This document shows positions 3,407-9,432 of a stretch of DNA of 11,364 nucleotides, piece after piece (position 1 is the first letter of the stretch; every line of letters starts with the position of its first letter). The notes under the pieces were generated by a model. The model saw only the letters and a list, made by a program, of their open reading frames with translations. It was not told the origin of the DNA and did no database searches. The stretch is from Thermotogota bacterium. GTDB lineage: Bacteria > Thermotogota > Thermotogae > Petrotogales > Petrotogaceae. The stretch is from the NCBI GenBank assembly GCA_051748045.1, contig JBNJGY010000053.1:1-11364 (forward strand), read 5' to 3'. The position numbers were made by a program, and so were the translations under genes.

Positions 3407-3420
3407 ATAATATCTTATTG

Positions 3421-3472
3421 GTTGGAGTAGGAAAAAATCTTATAGCTTTTTCAGATGGAGGTTGGGAGAAAA
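3421..3472 (-). repeat. Degenerate heptamer tract (G-rich on the + strand)
   Basis: GTTGGAG at 3421 and GATGGAG-GTTGGGA-GAAAAT at 3454-3473, the reverse complement of the TTTTC-TTCCAAC-ATCCATC motif seen elsewhere. Confidence 0.55.
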
Positions 3473-3523
3473 TTTAAATAATAAACAATGATATAATATA
3501 TATAAAATGTTTTTACTAAAATA

Positions 3524-3659
3524 ATCTATAAATTTCCGTAGAAAATTGAATGGTTTTAGATTCTTCAGCTCCAAAAATCGTCGTTCAGAATTACAAATTA
3601 CTTATCTTTCTAATAATGTATTAAATATAAGGTATATTAAACATAAAAAAATGAAGAAA
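3524..3659 (-). repeat. Dispersed repeat containing a GTCA-type stem-loop (3558-3594); inverted copy of about 8947-9082
   Basis: 3558-3594 reverse complement GTAATTCTGAACGACGATTTTTGGAGCTGAAGAATCT matches 9005-9041 at 35/37. The flanks (aatttccGTAgaaaattgaa; ttacttatcttt.taat.atgtattaaatat) also match. Confidence 0.9.
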
Positions 3660-3723
3660 TATAAAAAAGAAAAGTATAGTGTTTTCTGAGTGAAACATCT
3701 TTTAAATCGAAAACTAATGCGTG

Positions 3724-3776
3724 TGTCATGTCGAGCATCGTCGAGACATCTCTTCAGTAAATTTTCGTAGAAAATT
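3724..3776 (+). repeat. TGTCA-type REP-like element E1
   Basis: TGTC-ATGTC-GA-gcatcgtc-GA-GACAT-CT-cttcagta-AATTTTC-GTA-GAAAATT; 49/53 identical to the reverse complement of 9054-9106. Confidence 0.9.
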
Positions 3777-3793
3777 GAAAGGTTTTTTAAAGG

Positions 3794-3860
3794 CTTAATT
3801 TCACTTTGTGAAATTTACTGATGGGTTTTCTCCATGCGCTGTCGCTTAGTCGAAATGACA
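3794..3860 (-). repeat. TGTCA-type REP-like element E2, forming an inverted doublet with E1
   Basis: Reverse complement TGTC-ATTTC-GA-ctaagcgacagcgcatg-GA-GAAAA-cccatcagta-AATTTCAC-AAA-GTGAAATT-aag; clear homologue of 8855-8926. Confidence 0.9.
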
Positions 3861-3890
3861 GTTGTAATAATTTTCAACACTTGTTTTTTC

Positions 3891-3945
3891 TTTCAACCTC
3901 CCTCATCCATCATCCAACAAAATAAATTTCTATGAAATTTATTTT
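3891..3945 (+). repeat. Heptamer tract x4 plus AT-rich hairpin
   Basis: TTTCAAC CTCCCTC ATCCATC ATCCAAC, then AAAATAAATTTC-tat-GAAATTTATTTT. Confidence 0.85.
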
Positions 3946-3964
3946 ATAAAAAAGGAGAATAAAA

Positions 3965-4432
3965 ATGGGATATATTTTTGATTTACGCAAACACATTGGA
4001 AGCAAACCAATAATAATGGTTGGAGCAGGCGTAGTAATACTCGACGATAAAAACAGAATTCTTCTTCAGAGAAGAAAAGACAATAATTCCTGGAGCCTTA
4101 TAGGCGGTTCCATGGAACCTGGTGAAACATTTGAAGAAACTGCTATAAGAGAAGCAAAAGAAGAAGCTGGAATAGATATTAATAGTTTAAAACCAATAAA
4201 AGTTTTTTCAGGAAAAGAAATGCATCATAAATATCCAAATGGGGATGAAGTATACAACGTTGCAAGTATCTTTTTAGTCACTTCATATACAGGTGAAATA
4301 ATAGTTAATGATCATGAAAGTCATGAACATAAATTTTTTGATATTAAAGAAATACCTTCAAAATTAAATCCACCAGATGCTATAATGATTAAATATATAA
4401 AAGAAAACCTTAACGCAATAAAAGAGGGATAA
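3965..4432 (+). CDS. NUDIX hydrolase
   Basis: Nudix box GGSMEPGETFEETAIREAKEEAGI (GX5EX7REUXEEXGU). YIFDLRKHIG and YPNGDEV are typical of a common MutT-like subfamily. AAGGAG RBS. Confidence 0.93.
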   Translation: MGYIFDLRKHIGSKPIIMVGAGVVILDDKNRILLQRRKDNNSWSLIGGSMEPGETFEETAIREAKEEAGIDINSLKPIKVFSGKEMHHKYPNGDEVYNVASIFLVTSYTGEIIVNDHESHEHKFFDIKEIPSKLNPPDAIMIKYIKENLNAIKEG

Positions 4433-4444
4433 TTATCCCTCTTT
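4421..4444. terminator. 24-bp perfect palindrome over both stop codons; probable bidirectional terminator
   Basis: AAAGAGGGATAA|TTATCCCTCTTT, followed by T-rich sequence on both strands. Confidence 0.7.
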
Positions 4445-5215
4445 ATTTTCAAAAAAATTTCTTAAAGCCAAACTAATTTTTTCTAAAAGAATATAAACGT
4501 CTCTTTTTTCATTCAATTTTTTCAAAGTCTGCCAGTAAATAAATAACCCCAGCACTGCTCCAATTTGATTCTCTATCAAATCACTCATAGTATCAGTAAG
4601 GCTCTCTTCTTGAGCCATTCTATACCCTTCATAATCTCCAAAAATAAGATCAGATGTAAACTCTCCTATTTCCCAAAAAACGCCTATCATAGCAACAATA
4701 GAAAACATATATATATATATTTTAAATAATAAAGTCTTTGAAATTGTTCTTGACCAAATTAATTCTGACCCTAAAACAAGTGGAAACAAAAAACTAACAA
4801 GCCACATTCCTCCAGTTATATGCAATATGTCATCGAATAAGGGATAACTGTTATAAAAACCTAGCCACATTCCAAAAAAACTATGTAGGGTTATTTGAAG
4901 TATAGAAAAAAACCTTATTTCTTCAAAAATTGTTGATTTAGTAACCCATTCAAAAACCCATATAAAATCAATCAACAAAAATGACAATAAATATCCTAAA
5001 AAATGAGGCAGATTAAAATTAATCGCTGAATGAATAACTGGTATCAATGCCACAAAAGAAAAAAACATATTAGCCCAACGAAAAAAAACAAAAAACTTAG
5101 TGTTGCTAGAAAAAAGGGTTTCTTTAACCTCTGTATCATTAATCAAAAAAAGATTTAATTTTATAATTGGTTTTCTTAATCTCTTTGCTATTTTTTTTAA
5201 TAAAATTGGTTGCAT
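4433..5215 (-). CDS. Polytopic membrane protein, hypothetical (DUF2238/YjdF-like motif pattern)
   Basis: Several hydrophobic segments with embedded polar motifs FDDILHITGG, WEIGEF and DTMSDLIEN. AAGGAG RBS. The family assignment is tentative. Confidence 0.7.
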   Translation of the reverse strand: MQPILLKKIAKRLRKPIIKLNLFLINDTEVKETLFSSNTKFFVFFRWANMFFSFVALIPVIHSAINFNLPHFLGYLLSFLLIDFIWVFEWVTKSTIFEEIRFFSILQITLHSFFGMWLGFYNSYPLFDDILHITGGMWLVSFLFPLVLGSELIWSRTISKTLLFKIYIYMFSIVAMIGVFWEIGEFTSDLIFGDYEGYRMAQEESLTDTMSDLIENQIGAVLGLFIYWQTLKKLNEKRDVYILLEKISLALRNFFENKEG

Positions 5216-5233
5216 TATTTACTCCTTTGTTAT

Positions 5234-5288
5234 AAAATAAATTTCTTTGTAATTTATTTTGTTGTTAGTTGGAGGATGGAGGTTGTTG
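5234..5288 (-). repeat. Heptamer tract x4 plus AT-rich hairpin (inverted copy of 3891-3945)
   Basis: Reverse complement CAACAAC CTCCATC CTCCAAC TAACAAC, then AAAATAAATTAC-aaa-GAAATTTATTTT. Confidence 0.85.
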
Positions 5289-5326
5289 GTTTTTATCTAT
5301 TTTAGTAGCTTAATAATGCTTTTTTT

Positions 5327-5375
5327 TTCCAACTTCCAACCATAAACCTTCAACAGAAATCATTTTATGATTTCT
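5327..5375 (+). repeat. Heptamer tract x4 plus hairpin
   Basis: TTCCAAC TTCCAAC CATAAAC CTTCAAC, then AGAAATCAT-ttt-ATGATTTCT; closely matches 9137-9185. Confidence 0.85.
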
Positions 5376-5498
5376 ACTTCACGACCTACTTTGAATTTTT
5401 ATATTTCAGAATTGAAATTGTTATTTTGTCTTTTTCTCTTTCAGCAAAAATAATAAATAAAAATAACGAACTATTGAGAATTATAATACAAAATTTAT

Positions 5499-5524
5499 GT
5501 AGGGGTGCCCCTTGTGGGTACCCG
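5499..5524 (+). repeat. GTAG-type REP (single copy)
   Basis: GTAG-GGGTGCCC-cttgt-GGGTACCC-G: a GTAG tetranucleotide followed by a GC-rich imperfect palindrome, the architecture of RAYT/TnpA-REP-associated REPs. Confidence 0.7.
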
Positions 5525-5668
5525 TGTAAAATGCGTTAAAAAAATTGTATGTCTGAGCTGATTTTTGCGAGTTTGCAATTTTTAGTATTTCCAAGTGATT
5601 GAAGATATTATTTTTTCAATAATTTGATCTAGTGAAGAGCGCTATTTATTATTTTTCAATATTTTATA

Positions 5669-5730
5669 AATTTTCTTCGAAAATTAACTGATGAGACCCT
5701 TACGACTCACTTCGTTCGCTCAGGGTGACA
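5669..5730 (-). repeat. TGTCA-type REP-like element E3
   Basis: Reverse complement TGTC-ACCCT-GA-gcgaacgaagtgagtcg-TA-AGGGT-CT-catcagtt-AATTTTC-GAA-GAAAATT. Confidence 0.85.
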
Positions 5731-5759
5731 CCTACAAAGATTTTCAACAATGTATTTTC

Positions 5760-5799
5760 TTCCAACATCCATCCTCCAACAAAAATTATGTAATAATTT
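5760..5799 (+). repeat. Heptamer tract x3 plus hairpin
   Basis: TTCCAAC ATCCATC CTCCAAC aa, then AAATTAT-gta-ATAATTT; ends 6 nt from the MFS stop. Confidence 0.8.
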
Positions 5800-5805
5800 C
5801 TACAC

Positions 5806-7074
5806 TCATTCCTGTTCTTGTCTTTCTCCTCTTTTTACAAATTGGAGAGTCACAAAGGCTAAAATAAAAAATAAAAACGAGAAAATCATCAATGTGTTGT
5901 AATCTAATATGTCCATAGATAATCCCGCTAATGGTGGTGCAAAAATATTAGCTGCCATAGAGAAAAAATAGTATAATCCAGTATATCCACCAGATTTTTC
6001 ATTTGTTGTCATATCTACTACCATTGGAAGTGCGTTAACATTTATCAATGCCCAACCCATACCACCAAAAGCAAATAAAACAAATAAAATATTTCTAAAT
6101 ATATCTGGAGTATTTAAAATATCAGAATTACCTAATATGTAAGTAACTATAATTACAGTAGATAGCATTACTAACCCTATATAAATTGTTTTTTTTCTCC
6201 CAATTTTTGCACCAATAAACCCTGAGGGAATCGCAAAAACCATAAAAACTAAAGAGAAAACTCCCATAATTAAAGCTCCTGTACTTTCTGGTATTCCAGC
6301 ATGAAATTTTGCATATGTGGTGAAAAATGTTTCTATAGCATTGAACCCAATAAACCAAAATAATATGGATAAAAGCATAAACAAAAGCGATTTTTCTTTA
6401 TTTGTGAAAGCATCTTTCAAATTACCCATTAACTCTACTAACCCATTTTTGAAAAATCCTGCTTTTTTCTCTATAGTAGTTTCTTTTATTGTATATTTAG
6501 GATCTTCTTTTATAAAAGTCAAAAGAACCATAACAGCACCAAGCATTATTATAGCGCCAGCAATGAAAGGAAAACTTTGATTGGCATCATATAACGGTTT
6601 CCCTGCAAAAAACGCCAGCAAGGCTCCGAGACCACCCATAAAATTAATAACACCATTAGCTTGGCTTCTAAATTTAGACGGAGTAACGTCTGGCATTAAA
6701 GCGACAACTGGGGATCTAAAAACAGCCATAAAAAAATTCATAAGAATTATTATAAACATCAATAACGGTAGTATCGAAAGATCTTTTATGATAGGTATCA
6801 AAACAAAAAATAAAGCTGCAAATGGTGCGCCAACCATTATATATGGTTTTCTTCTACCAAATTTTGTTCTTGTTTGATCTGACATCGCTCCTATTACTGG
6901 TAACATCAATATTGCGAATATATTATCAAAAGTCATTACAGTTCCAACCCAAAAAGAAGAAAGATCAAAAGATTTCAAAAAAATAGGAACATACGCATTA
7001 TAAAGAGGCCAAATTATACTAACCCCAAAAAACCCAAACCCCAAAACAAAAAGTTTCCAACTTTTAAATTTCAT
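5806..7074 (-). CDS. MFS transporter (SLC45/maltose-permease-like sugar:cation symporter)
   Basis: About 12 TM segments; GAMSDQTRTKFGRRKPYI motif A, FRSPVVALMPD, RSQANGVINFMGGLG and GGYTGLYYFFS. Confidence 0.9.
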   Translation of the reverse strand: MKFKSWKLFVLGFGFFGVSIIWPLYNAYVPIFLKSFDLSSFWVGTVMTFDNIFAILMLPVIGAMSDQTRTKFGRRKPYIMVGAPFAALFFVLIPIIKDLSILPLLMFIIILMNFFMAVFRSPVVALMPDVTPSKFRSQANGVINFMGGLGALLAFFAGKPLYDANQSFPFIAGAIIMLGAVMVLLTFIKEDPKYTIKETTIEKKAGFFKNGLVELMGNLKDAFTNKEKSLLFMLLSILFWFIGFNAIETFFTTYAKFHAGIPESTGALIMGVFSLVFMVFAIPSGFIGAKIGRKKTIYIGLVMLSTVIIVTYILGNSDILNTPDIFRNILFVLFAFGGMGWALINVNALPMVVDMTTNEKSGGYTGLYYFFSMAANIFAPPLAGLSMDILDYNTLMIFSFLFFILAFVTLQFVKRGERQEQE

Positions 7075-7084
7075 TATTTTCCCC

Positions 7085-7777
7085 CTATCTTAAAAAATTA
7101 ACTATTTCTTCTACCTCATCTGTTATAACTCCATCATAGTGTCCCTTTAACATTTTCAAATGTTCTATATTATTAACAGTCCATAAGAATATTTTGAGCC
7201 CATGAGATTTCCAGCTACCTATAAACTTTGAAGAATAATCGACTCCAAATTCAACAATTTTATCAATATATAGGTTCAAAGAATATAAATTTAAGTCTTC
7301 ATGGATTTTGTCAATATTTTTTAAAGATTCATAATCAACTAAAAGTCCTATTTTAACTTCTTTATCCAAATCTCTAATTATCTTAATTGCTTCAACATCA
7401 AAAGATGAAAACAAAGTATTTTCCAACAAACCAAAATTTTTAATAATTTCATAAGAGCCTACAGAAGATTGTTTTTCTTTTATTTCTAAATTATAATAAG
7501 TATCTTTTGGTAATTCTTCCAGAACTTCTTGTAACCGTGGAATAGATGGTTGTTTTTTTCTTAATTCTTCAAAATTCAAATTAATAATCTTAATTTCTTT
7601 TCCATCTTTATCCTTAAAAAAGTCATCGTGATGTATGATGACCACTCCATCTTTTGTAAGTCTTGCATCAAATTCAATGCCATCTGCACCATTTTCAAGA
7701 GCTTTCACAAAAGACAAAATTGTGTTTTCGGGAAATTTTGCTTTATAACCCCTATGTCCTAAAATCTTCACATCCAT
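7085..7777 (-). CDS. Glycerophosphodiester phosphodiesterase (GDPD/UgpQ family)
   Basis: GHRG, PENT, GADGIEFDARLTKDG..IHHD, NLEIK, SSFD, WTVN and GVITD motifs. Confidence 0.93.
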   Translation of the reverse strand: MDVKILGHRGYKAKFPENTILSFVKALENGADGIEFDARLTKDGVVIIHHDDFFKDKDGKEIKIINLNFEELRKKQPSIPRLQEVLEELPKDTYYNLEIKEKQSSVGSYEIIKNFGLLENTLFSSFDVEAIKIIRDLDKEVKIGLLVDYESLKNIDKIHEDLNLYSLNLYIDKIVEFGVDYSSKFIGSWKSHGLKIFLWTVNNIEHLKMLKGHYDGVITDEVEEIVNFLR

Positions 7778-7820
7778 TTTTAATCCCCCTTTTAATTTTC
7801 TTAATTATTAAAATTATATC

Positions 7821-7848
7821 AAAAAACTCTCGCTTTTCAGCGAGAGTT
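7821..7848 (-). terminator. Intrinsic terminator after the aldo/keto reductase gene
   Basis: Minus strand AACTCTCGCT-GAAA-AGCGAGAGTT-TTTT, 5 nt after the stop. Confidence 0.85.
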
Positions 7849-7853
7849 CTATA

Positions 7854-8714
7854 TTAAACATCTGGATGTGGAAAAACTGTATCATCAGCAAGATTACTAG
7901 CTTTTTCTTTTAAATATTCTTCTTCAGTTATTGAAAGAGGTTCAAATTCGTCTGCTGCATCGCAAGCCCATCTTAATAATTCTATATGACTTGGAGAAAC
8001 TGCTGTATCTACTCCTTTACTGAGAGTAAACCTCATTCCTAATTTAGCTTCTTCATAATTATCTACAGGTTTATACCAAGTTTTAGACCAATTTCTTTCT
8101 TCATCTTTTTTCCATTTTCTCTTTGCTAATGCTTTAAGGGCTATTATTCCCACGTTTTTCTTTTTTGCTAAATCTAAAACAGAATTACCAAAACCTTCTT
8201 TTAACCAAGATGCCCAATTAACAGGAAACATAATAGTATCAAAATCAAATCTATTCATCAATTCAAATGCTGCTTCTTCTGTGTGAGCAGAAAAGCCTAT
8301 ATAATTGATCAAACCTTCTTCTTTAGCTTCTAAAACAGCTTCCATAGCACCATTAGGCCCTAGGATTTTATCTACTTCCTCTTTTGAAACGATAGAGTGG
8401 AATTGATAGATGTCAAAGTAATTAGTTTTTAACTTTTTTAAAGAAGTTTCAATATCTCGTCTACATTCTTCTTTCTCAAGGGCGTCAGTCTTGCAAGATA
8501 AAACAACATCTTTTCTAAAAGGCTTCAAAGCAGGCCCCAATATCTCTTCTGAATTTCCATAACTGGGAGCAACATCAAAATAATTAACACCTCTTTTTAT
8601 CGCCTCTTCTACATATTTTGAAGCATTCTCTGCTGTTTCATCCATAACAACAATTCCACCAAACCCAACAACCGATACTTCTAAACCTGTTTTCCCCAGA
8701 ACTCTGTTAAACAT
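7854..8714 (-). CDS. Aldo/keto reductase
   Basis: LGKTGLEVSVVGFGG, NYFDVAPSYG (catalytic Asp/Tyr), SCK, YFDIYQFH and IGFSAH. Start moved from 8747 to ATG 8714 because GAGGTG lies at 8726-8721. Confidence 0.92.
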   Translation of the reverse strand: MFNRVLGKTGLEVSVVGFGGIVVMDETAENASKYVEEAIKRGVNYFDVAPSYGNSEEILGPALKPFRKDVVLSCKTDALEKEECRRDIETSLKKLKTNYFDIYQFHSIVSKEEVDKILGPNGAMEAVLEAKEEGLINYIGFSAHTEEAAFELMNRFDFDTIMFPVNWASWLKEGFGNSVLDLAKKKNVGIIALKALAKRKWKKDEERNWSKTWYKPVDNYEEAKLGMRFTLSKGVDTAVSPSHIELLRWACDAADEFEPLSITEEEYLKEKASNLADDTVFPHPDV

Positions 8715-8752
8715 AATAAACACCTCTTTTATAAAAAATAATAACAATTTTC

Positions 8753-8790
8753 TTCCAACATCGTTCCTCCTACAGAAACCTTTGATTTCT
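8753..8790 (+). repeat. Degenerate heptamer tract x3 plus hairpin
   Basis: TTCCAAC ATCGTTC CTCCTAC, then AGAAACC-ttt-GATTTCT. Confidence 0.7.
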
Positions 8791-8799
8791 TTGCATTAA

Positions 8800-8841
8800 T
8801 CCCCTCTAAATGTGTTAGAGGGGACGTGCGTAGCACAGGGG
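8800..8841 (+). repeat. CCCCTC-type GC-rich double hairpin
   Basis: TCCCCTCTAA-atgtg-TTAGAGGGGA, then GTGC-GTA-GCAC and AGGGG. Confidence 0.7.
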
Positions 8842-8854
8842 TATTTAGACTCTT

Positions 8855-8926
8855 TGTCATTTCGACTAAGATGCGTAGCATCGCATGGAGAAATCTCTTC
8901 AGTTAATTTCACGTAGTGAAATTAAG
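8855..8926 (+). repeat. TGTCA-type REP-like element E4
   Basis: TGTC-ATTTC-GA-ctaa-GATGC-GTA-GCATC-gcatg-GA-GAAAT-CT-cttcag-TTAATTTCAC-GTA-GTGAAATTAA-g. Confidence 0.9.
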
Positions 8927-9004
8927 ATTGTAAAACAATCAATTTTTTTCATCATTTTTTTATAAAATATATATTTAATACATAATTAAAAAGATAAGTA
9001 ACTC

Positions 9005-9106
9005 GTCATTCTGAACGACGGTTTTTGGAGCTGAAGAATCTAAAAACCATTTCAATTTTCTGCGAAAATTTACTGTATAGATGTCTCGACCATGCTCGAC
9101 ATGACA
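9005..9106. repeat. Inverted doublet of GTCA-type elements E6 (9005-9041, +) and E5 (9054-9106, -)
   Basis: E6 is GTC-ATTCT-GA-acgacggtttttggagct-GA-AGAAT-CT. E5 reverse complement is TGTC-ATGTC-GA-gcatggtc-GA-GACAT-CT-atacagta-AATTTTC-GCA-GAAAATT. Confidence 0.9.
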
Positions 9107-9136
9107 TATGCAAAGGTTTTTAGTCCGTGTTTTTTC

Positions 9137-9185
9137 TTCCAACTTCCAACATCCATCTTCCAACAGAAATCATTTCATGATTTCT
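9137..9185 (+). repeat. Heptamer tract x4 plus hairpin
   Basis: TTCCAAC TTCCAAC ATCCATC TTCCAAC, then AGAAATCAT-ttc-ATGATTTCT. Confidence 0.9.
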
Positions 9186-9432
9186 TTTCTTACTAAAATT
9201 ATAACAAATAAAATAAGTATAATATTAAAATTTTTTAAGCTTTGTTTGGTAAACTAACCTTAACTATAAATAACTATTGTATATAATTACTATAAACTTA
9301 GTTCAGATAAGAGTTATAAATTTAATTAGTAATGAAGAAAAAATAGTAAATTTATTTGTATTCAAATATTTAATAGTATAATGGATTGATGATAAATCCC
9401 ACATTTTGTTCCAAAAAGAAAAGGTGATAATT

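Follow-up and report, generated by a model that had tools for sequence, protein, structure and literature searches.

What are the short, tagged stem-loops that recur between the genes of this DNA, and what would read them? The window analyzed here is the entire 11,364-bp contig JBNJGY010000053.1 (C53) of a Thermotogota bacterium whose draft genome (G000) comprises 2.41 Mb in 158 contigs with 28% G+C. The stem of these hairpins is maintained by compensatory change among copies throughout the genome. The hairpins probably constitute a lineage-specific variant of the class of repetitive extragenic palindromic (REP) sequences that are tagged with CGTC or TGTC and include hairpins cut as single-stranded DNA (ssDNA) by Ssn nucleases in other bacteria, with the copies in this genome being orphans of a partner that has been lost or is unrecognized. 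The class is already described; the local variant, in which a GA bubble interrupts the stem and which is without a detectable nuclease, is new. A literature search found no paper on this repeat family in its genus. The comparison panel consisted of 26 genomes of the same family, including G000, two congeners (G001 and G002) and a representative of a second genus (G003), together with 25 genomes from a sister family in the same order.

Tagged hairpins in the window

All seven stem-loops that a first-pass annotation of the window had reported were located by inspection of the sequence. Along with the stem-loops of the spacers that adjoin them, the hairpins are as follows.

3531-3547, + strand: lone spacer stem-loop, AATTTCC-GTA-GAAAATT; it adjoins the 3558-3595 hairpin, and the tagged hairpin that normally precedes it is missing
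3558-3595, - strand: tagged hairpin with the degenerate head TGTA; stem ATTCT/AGAAT; GA...GA; inner part ACGACGATTTTTGGAGCT
3724-3751, + strand: TGTC-tagged hairpin, left half of a doublet; stem ATGTC/GACAT; tandem GA/GA; tail CT
3760-3776, + strand: spacer stem-loop with a GTA triloop, preceded by the linker CTTCAGTA
3797-3815, - strand: spacer stem-loop, AATTTCAC-AAA-GTGAAATT, right half of the doublet
3824-3860, - strand: TGTC-tagged hairpin, right half of the doublet; stem ATTTC/GAAAA with the basal pair lost; inner mini-hairpin GCG-ACAG-CGC
5669-5685, - strand: spacer stem-loop with a GAA triloop
5694-5730, - strand: TGTC-tagged hairpin; stem ACCCT/AGGGT; GA...TA; inner mini-hairpin AC-GAA-GT
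8855-8896, + strand: TGTC-tagged hairpin; stem ATTTC/GAAAT; inner mini-hairpin GATGC-GTA-GCATC
8905-8923, + strand: spacer stem-loop with a GTA triloop
9004-9041, + strand: CGTC-tagged hairpin; stem ATTCT/AGAAT; GA...GA; tail CT
9054-9070, - strand: spacer stem-loop with a GCA triloop
9079-9106, - strand: TGTC-tagged hairpin; stem ATGTC/GACAT; forms a doublet with 9004-9041, both tags outward

The full form, which is present in five of the seven hairpins, is composed of TGTC, an A, a four-nucleotide variable part of the stem, GA, an inner part, a second GA (TA in one of the five), the complementary stem arm and CT. Five hairpins are followed by the tail C(W)TCAGTWAATTT and a stem-loop of 17-19 nt with an AT-rich stem of 7-8 bp and a three-base loop; the earlier claim of five such tails therefore was borne out, and the lone stem-loop at 3531-3547 is a sixth stem-loop of this kind. 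Both of the inverted doublets that had been proposed are real, and that at 3713-3871 recurs elsewhere in the genome. The region of the 3558-3595 hairpin is an 88% inverted match to 8958-9045, and the hairpin at 5694-5730 lies 75 nt past the stop codon of the gene for an MFS transporter with which it shares its strand. The pattern GTCAYNNYGAN{6,34}GANNNRTCT was matched four times in the window compared to 0.01 matches expected, with none of 200 shuffled sequences reaching four, and a pattern that included the tail also yielded four matches compared to 0.00 expected. Thus, a chance origin of the window hairpins is excluded.

Covariation and folding of the stem

Covariation was assessed in 68 complete copies from the genome in a plain MAFFT alignment. 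The 5-bp stem was paired in 96.2% of cells compared to 73.8 +/- 1.3% in shuffles, none of 500 of which reached the observed value, and pairing fell to 20.9-58.8% when the 3' partner was slid. Changes on both sides were evident at four of the five stem pairs; all five pairs were complete in 55 copies, and four in the remaining 13. The four alternative stems from which covariation had been claimed originally thus extend to nine 5' arms in the larger set (ATGTC, ATTTC, ACCCT, ATCCT, ACCTT, ATATT, ATTCT, ACCTC, and ATCTC). The first pair is A-T in 57 copies and unpaired in 11, and the second is T-A in 54, C-G in 12 and T.G in two. Other positions are close to constant: the head is TGTC in 67 copies and GGTC in one, such that GTC is present in 68/68; the first stem base is A in every copy; the 5' GA is present in 67; the 3' GA is present in 57, with TA in 10 and AA in one; and C directly follows the stem in 67. 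The tail dinucleotide is CT (50 copies), CC (15), CA (2) or TT (1). In an alignment fitted to a structural model, which leans towards the structure, 13 pairs were 98.0% paired versus 86.2% and eight of the 13 changed on both sides. Within the second stem-loop, three inner pairs (TC/GA, CAC/GTG, and GC/GC) are among those that change on both sides. Overall, the helix is kept by compensatory change.

The helix comprises 5 bp followed by G.A/A.G and then by an inner part that varies with the subfamily and often is a mini-hairpin closed as C(GNA)G, which produces units of 27-42 nt. The tandem G.A/A.G pairs and the GNA triloops stabilize the strand that carries GTCA, whereas their complements (U.C and UNC) do not, and the GTCA strand folded more stably than its complement in four of five window copies with z-scores that were modest. 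One copy (G000:C19:25805-25892) reads TGTCATGTCGAGACATC; the GA bubble of its subtype produces two direct GTCGAG strings, and slippage between them could have removed the loop together with one GTCGAG.

Copy number, arrangement and gene context

Iterated nhmmer searches converged on 82 copies in the genome, and a covariance model (R1) recovered 77 in the fetched loci and 71 in a genome scan. The assembly breaks at these repeats and many copies are located at contig ends; therefore, the true number probably is higher. Open reading frames (ORFs) of 90 aa or longer take up 91.7% of the genome, yet all but one of the 82 copies fall outside them. Adjacent copies form 29 pairs, of which 21 have the tags outward, four inward and four in direct orientation. 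The description of the units as REP-like structured repeats that often occur in inverted pairs accordingly is upheld (25/29), and 34 of the 82 copies are single hairpins. The doublet at 3713-3871 is present nearly at full length at 17 loci, the window locus counted, with a median pairwise identity of 80% (range 54-97%). Its flanks are further repeats, namely, on one side, a GGA-rich arm (GTTGGAAGATGGATGTTGGAAG) accompanied by an AT-rich hairpin and, on the other, the CCAAC-rich complement; entire intergenic regions of the window therefore are repeat mosaics. The intergenic DNA of the window mostly is filled by these repeats, and most segments of the mosaics recur in the congener G001.

Among the 34 single copies, 21 are on the same strand as the upstream gene, nine are on the opposite strand and four could not be assigned; between co-directional genes, 10 are in the sense orientation and two in the antisense orientation. 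Many copies begin 66-102 nt past the upstream stop codon. Divergent gaps hold 15 of the 47 copies for which both neighboring genes are known, and a canonical terminator separates the gene from the copy at no fewer than three loci (C23, C41:15156, and C16:16678). As GC skew follows the gene strand (r = 0.89, 65 contigs), replication-strand and transcription-strand bias are not separable by skew. The genes of the window itself are ordinary and encode a photolyase fragment, a DUF1722/2-thiouracil desulfurase, oligoendopeptidase F, a NUDIX protein, a membrane protein, an MFS transporter, GDPD, an aldo/keto reductase, SfsA and a DUF389 protein.

Distribution in relatives and at orthologous sites

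With the R1 covariance model, 71 copies were detected in G000, 16 in G001 and 8 in G002, the three members of the genus, and none in the remaining 48 genomes from the order. A pattern restricted to the first hairpin was matched 41 times in G000, 16 in G001, seven in G002 and 63 in G003, with no match to a reversed-pattern control in any of the four, and 0-5 times in each of the other 47 genomes compared to 0-4 in the control. Among the 51 genomes scanned, the GA-bubble variant thus is limited to two genera that belong to a single family. The units of G003 have the stems ATCTC/GAGAT and ATTTC/GAAAT with GA...GA and occur in tags-outward pairs; the spacer of the pairs is ~60 nt, differs in sequence and is without the AATTT stem-loops. 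In a scan of genome contigs with a loose pattern, which reported 111 stretches, the matches listed were nearly all single chance matches. When 80 of the 111 were rescored with the covariance model, one of the 80 was a clear copy (G002:C111:138-209, 70.5 bits), and three more with E values of at most 0.01 (22-30 bits) were set aside as they had been selected by the pattern.

The flanks of 13 G001 loci that contain 19 copies were mapped onto G000, with which genes are ~80% identical. Six loci correspond to G000 gaps that also hold copies, and the subtype differs in at least three of these; one locus corresponds to a copy-free gap, and the others either are at contig ends or have no match in G000. 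Some orthologous copies have stem mismatches in both species (L083 versus C28). Since orthologous gaps contain copies of differing subtype, some of them mismatched, the sites of the repeats must be of long standing, whereas the copies that occupy them are replaced over time and can decay individually. Empty sites were sought by comparison with G001, where orthologous gaps are rebuilt from other modules and no insertion boundary or duplication was readable, and in DNA sequencing runs, in which the joints connect like modules of other loci and no clean empty site was found. The NUDIX gene and its upstream repeat mosaic (3410-4436) are absent at the syntenic site G001:C14:4071-4106, where the neighboring genes are 34 nt apart.

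Likeness to CGTC-tagged REPs and to Ssn targets

The CGTC-tagged REPs were grouped into families CGTC-1 to CGTC-4 by Di Nocera, De Gregorio, and Rocco (2013, BMC Genomics 14:522; PMC3733652). As characterized in the parts of that paper that define the class, an unpaired CGTC, often TGTC and in one variant CCTC, is located at one end of a palindrome whose stem opens with complementary A-T and which is followed by a short unpaired tail with the consensus CCA. Stems are 8-9 bp and loops 4-5 nt, with other loop lengths allowed in K. olearia and M. prima, the members of the Thermotogae in which the repeats were reported. Units of unlike sequence form dimers, the spacers of which can carry a stem-loop at each end; the repeats contribute to intergenic mosaics in Neisseria, and the descriptions of the class name no dedicated transposase (PMC3733652). 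Compared by these text descriptions, the units studied here share the C/TGTC head, the A-T start of the stem, the inverted dimers, which mostly join unlike units, the intergenic location, structured spacers with stem-loops at their ends, the absence of a flanked transposase and hosts among the Thermotogae. The inner part differs in being a variable mini-hairpin, and the short tail that is present reads mostly CT or CC rather than CCA. As the tagged class was published in 2013, the family matches a described class in part, although stem length and bubble set it apart.

The mosaics of Neisseria, in which dRS3 is associated with RS units, likewise interleave tagged hairpins with other repeat families across intergenic regions, as presented in the relevant sections of PMC3733652. 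In the window the interleaved families include the GGA/CCAAC-rich arms, a unit that begins CCCCTCTAAATG and others, and both the sequences and the phylum differ from those of Neisseria. The neisserial arrays presumably are the elements known as neisserial intergenic mosaic elements (NIME).

A protein has been linked to this class through SsnA, a single-domain GIY-YIG nuclease of 94 aa (Chenal et al., 2025, Nat Commun 16:2388; PMC11893778). In the experiments that the paper details, SsnA binds the NTS hairpin, which is the CGTC-tagged dRS3 of Neisseria, only as ssDNA and on one strand only, and cuts a few nucleotides upstream of the hairpin; cleavage requires three nucleotides before the palindrome and binding requires a C right after it. 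Genes for ssnA typically are flanked by NTS/SRM motifs, and whereas ssDNA binding and cleavage are reported, copying of the repeats by Ssn is raised in that account only as a hypothesis (PMC11893778). The units in G000 resemble Ssn targets as directional hairpins with GTC before the palindrome and C after it, in the proportions given above. Further parallels with NTS and related motifs are the hundreds of intergenic copies in some hosts and the arrangement of a gene among hairpins in the sister-family genome G032. The AT-rich 5-bp stems with a GA bubble and the lack of an Ssn homologue in G000-G003 differ from the Ssn systems.

In G032 an ORF of 98 aa (L215:1492-1788) with a GIY-YIG domain (58.8 bits on PF01541) is embedded in a dense array of hairpins of the form (C/T)GTC-AT...AT-CTC, with differing stems, on both sides. 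Strong homologues are present in three more sister-family genomes (G040, G035, and G027), and a cd10448-type single-domain GIY-YIG gene thus was found in these four and was absent in searches of G000-G003. The first-pass annotation had stated that similar repeats flank small stand-alone GIY-YIG genes. The published Ssn system probably is what was meant; the link agrees with that system and with the G032 array and does not extend to G000-G003, in which searches found no Ssn homologue. A second Ssn-like copy in G032 (C1:679389-680895; L223 and L224) is in two pieces ~1.2 kb apart that match residues 1-43 and 41-98 with 95-98% identity.

A fully paired repeat, (C/T)GTC-ATTCTGAG-CTTGA-CTCAGAAT-C(T/C), was matched 36 times in six of the 25 sister-family genomes, and neither in the 26 genomes of the window's family nor in controls. 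The window copy at 9004-9041 (CGTC-ATTCT-GA...GA-AGAAT-CT) shares the head, the 5' arm and the tail with these repeats, and versions with 8 fully paired bp occur only in the sister family among the 51 genomes. The GA-bubble units belong to the CGTC/TGTC-tagged class, which is that of the Ssn targets, in their design and probably also by descent.

A proposed explanation and its rivals

In the explanation that we consider likely, each unit would fold as a DNA hairpin on one strand, and it has an unpaired (C/T)GTC head and an unpaired tail that begins with C. The 5-bp helix starts with A-T and is free in sequence as long as it pairs, and the G.A/A.G bubble always lies equally far from the head. 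The bubble replaces pairing at stem positions 6-7, and the loop has grown into a mini-hairpin, often closed as C(GNA)G. Units mostly occur in pairs with tags outward across a spacer with a stem-loop at each end, inside larger intergenic mosaics. By analogy with the published Ssn enzyme, recognition would depend on shape together with constant letters: the head, bubble and tail C may be read by a protein on ssDNA as SsnA reads NTS. With this partner lost or unrecognized in G000, the orphan copies would persist, turn over by inter-copy recombination and ride in 3' untranslated RNA as passengers. It is in this manner that we infer the spread and function of the repeats in this genome.

A number of observations weigh against this explanation. 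PF01541 matched just two proteins in G000, UvrC and one of 280 aa in which the C-terminal domain is borderline; the latter is found in G000 alone within the order, with no units in its vicinity, and neither is an Ssn homologue. An Ssn-like protein query gave no match in G000-G003 at E values up to 0.1, and when a profile built from six Ssn-like proteins was run against 21,009 pieces of the six-frame translation of G000, the best E value was 0.14. As the assembly is in 158 contigs and many copies are at contig ends, a gene enclosed by repeats could have escaped assembly; G001, which is in only 20 contigs, likewise is without an Ssn-like gene. None of the 82 copies matches the published SRM expression HGTCWYN(0-2)YYVSBRHN(0-5)WNVSBRGN(0-2)RNCYNB, which has one match in the whole G000 genome compared to 0-1 in five shuffles. 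The 5-bp stem with its G.A/A.G bubble departs from the 8-9 full pairs of the tagged REPs, and the kinship with the fully paired repeats is based on short strings (the head, ATTCTGA, and AGAAT-CT) that could be convergent. The sense-strand bias of single copies described above also is predicted by a role at the RNA level.

Such a role, in which hairpins in 3' untranslated regions shield the upstream message from 3' exonucleases or modulate termination or translation and the folding of RNA is what is selected, is an unlikely explanation that nonetheless merits consideration. In addition to the strand bias and the many copies that begin 66-102 nt past a stop codon, G.A pairs and GNA triloops stabilize RNA too, and many REPs are argued to be transcribed in the discussion of this point in PMC3733652. 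The four public sequencing runs examined all consist of contigs without strand information. RNA-library contigs cover 5340-5490, 5507-5771, and 5557-5773 exactly, the latter two being matches without mismatch from two studies. As the depth is the same low depth as at genes, these contigs do not establish transcription, and carry-over of DNA may account for them. Folding is modest, with z-scores that range from -0.6 to -2.6 when units are folded singly and a z-score of -0.97 when the entire doublet is folded with its flanks, and no U-run follows either hairpin. The canonical terminators between gene and copy and the sizeable share of copies in divergent gaps also argue against an RNA function, as does the confinement to two genera with differing subtypes at orthologous sites, which is unlike a conserved regulator.

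The two classical routes of repeat mobility are considerably less probable. The units have features in common with the GTAG REPs, REPINs and BIMEs that are associated with REP-associated tyrosine transposases (RAYT): they are small palindromes between genes, begin with a conserved tetranucleotide and occur both as doublets and in mosaics with other motifs. Cleavage by the E. coli RAYT requires unpaired residues beside the loop, as quoted in PMC3733652. If the units were strict REPINs, that is, REP doublets copied in trans by a Y1 HUH enzyme of this type, the candidate would be the sole Y1_Tnp gene of G000 (C82:4967-5716; L048:1462-2214), whose 250-aa product reached 79.3 bits on NCBIfam REP_Tyr_transpos, just short of the cut-off of 80. 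However, this gene is flanked by its own inverted repeats, GGGGTCGGACC, which are unrelated to the hairpin units, in a layout that corresponds to the "TIRYT" arrangement as outlined in PMC6006769. Homologues are present in none of the 25 other genomes of the family, G001-G003 included, and in 14 of the 25 sister-family genomes, so the gene probably was acquired horizontally. PF01797 (Y1_Tnp) had no match in G001 or G002, which are two of the four host genomes. The head is TGTC instead of GT[AG]G, and no RAYT gene is flanked by units. The REPIN interpretation accordingly is very improbable. An ORF of 117 aa that belongs to no family precedes the Y1 gene. It is scarcely credible that the units are ordinary miniature inverted-repeat transposable elements, in which the TGTCA...TGACA ends would be the terminal inverted repeats of internally deleted remnants of a DDE transposon. 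Doublets do end in inverted TGTCAT.TCGA strings and copy number differs fivefold between congeners, but no target-site duplication is visible, the palindrome runs on into the flanking arms, the many solitary hairpins are not accommodated, and recognition of terminal repeats as double-stranded DNA needs no compensatory changes in a stem. Neither a TnpB (PF07282) nor an IS110 (PF01548) transposase was found in G000.

The searches with PF01797, PF01541, PF07282, PF01548, and the Ssn-like, Y1 and 280-aa protein queries together revealed no linked autonomous partner. The absence of an associated nuclease gene within the window had been observed correctly. The further proposal that the repeats are non-autonomous implies a mobilizing partner, which searches of the entire assembly and of the relatives did not reveal; no GIY-YIG or Y1 HUH gene is linked to the repeats in G000. 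Four genomes with 7-63 pattern matches keep the constant letters and have no Ssn homologue, and two of these are without Y1. It is for this reason that a further interpretation was considered, which is rather improbable: the hairpins are read by an ssDNA-hairpin enzyme that is neither Ssn nor Y1, or the bubble is an escape from cutting by the Ssn of neighbors. In the escape version the bubble would retain the hairpin and prevent cutting by the Ssn of neighboring lineages during DNA uptake.

Neighboring repeats and rejected candidates

A second repeat family with CCAAC-rich arms, which on the other strand are GGA-rich (GTTGGAAGATGGATGTTGGAAG), and an AT-rich hairpin GAAATC....GATTTCTG is present at the following positions in the window.

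3418-3475: CCAAC/GGA-arm repeat
3885-3945: CCAAC/GGA-arm repeat
5231-5300: CCAAC/GGA-arm repeat
5322-5378: CCAAC/GGA-arm repeat
5754-5803: CCAAC/GGA-arm repeat
8747-8792: CCAAC/GGA-arm repeat
9130-9186: CCAAC/GGA-arm repeat

The genome contains 28 copies by a strict pattern, of which four start at most 6 nt past a co-directional stop codon. The GGAUGU strings of the GGA-rich arms resemble CsrA-type binding motifs. An integron attC site was rejected for the CCAAC/GTTGG arms: the core 7-mers misfit, and the genes have housekeeping functions and do not share one orientation. A 71-nt leader is common to two genes of opposite orientation, at 3894-3964 upstream of the NUDIX gene (3965) and at 5215-5285 for the membrane protein gene that ends at 5215; the two leaders are 82% complementary and include a hairpin, the ribosome-binding site AAGGAG and the interval between it and ATG. 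The leader looks like a portable 5' module.

A further repeat, at 8796-8857, consists of CCCCTCTAAATGTGTTAGAGGGG and then ACGTGCGTAGCACAGGGG; G001 has numerous copies of it with 88-93% identity, some of which form tandem arrays upstream of the sfsA orthologue. On the - strand at 5414-5523, a GC-rich hairpin, GGGTACCC-ACAA-GGGGCACCC, is a sub-threshold match to SprD (28.7 bits versus a gathering score of 100, E 0.011), and ~200 nt around it (5439-5654) recur several times in G001 with 77-87% identity. The region 5414-5654 may be a terminator or small RNA module.

The tagged hairpins also were compared with known RNA structures. A hammerhead on the opposite strand (CUGAUGAG-stem-GACA) was rejected as it has C at the invariant A14, no 10.1-11.1 pair and no cleavage strand. 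Rfam covariance models gave 16 matches at E values up to 10, none of which attained its gathering score and none of which was a ribozyme, which also speaks against the hammerhead. One weak match was to snoU83D over 3842-3916 (19.5 bits versus a gathering score of 55, E 9.6). A K-turn or C/D-box was discarded as there is no 3-nt bulge and the GA pairs are in a symmetric 2x2 loop.

Implications

Few bacterial repeats are as widespread as the hairpins tagged with CGTC or TGTC, whose link to a protein, Ssn, dates only from 2025. For annotation, these repeats should be masked rather than called as small RNAs. If the reader of the hairpins is neither Ssn nor Y1, or if the bubble is an escape from cutting, this small family of AT-rich repeats would be well suited to finding what maintains the CGTC class. 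The GA-bubble family provides a natural test of whether repeats outlive their nuclease or are served by another enzyme, and of how much drift of the hairpin recognition tolerates.

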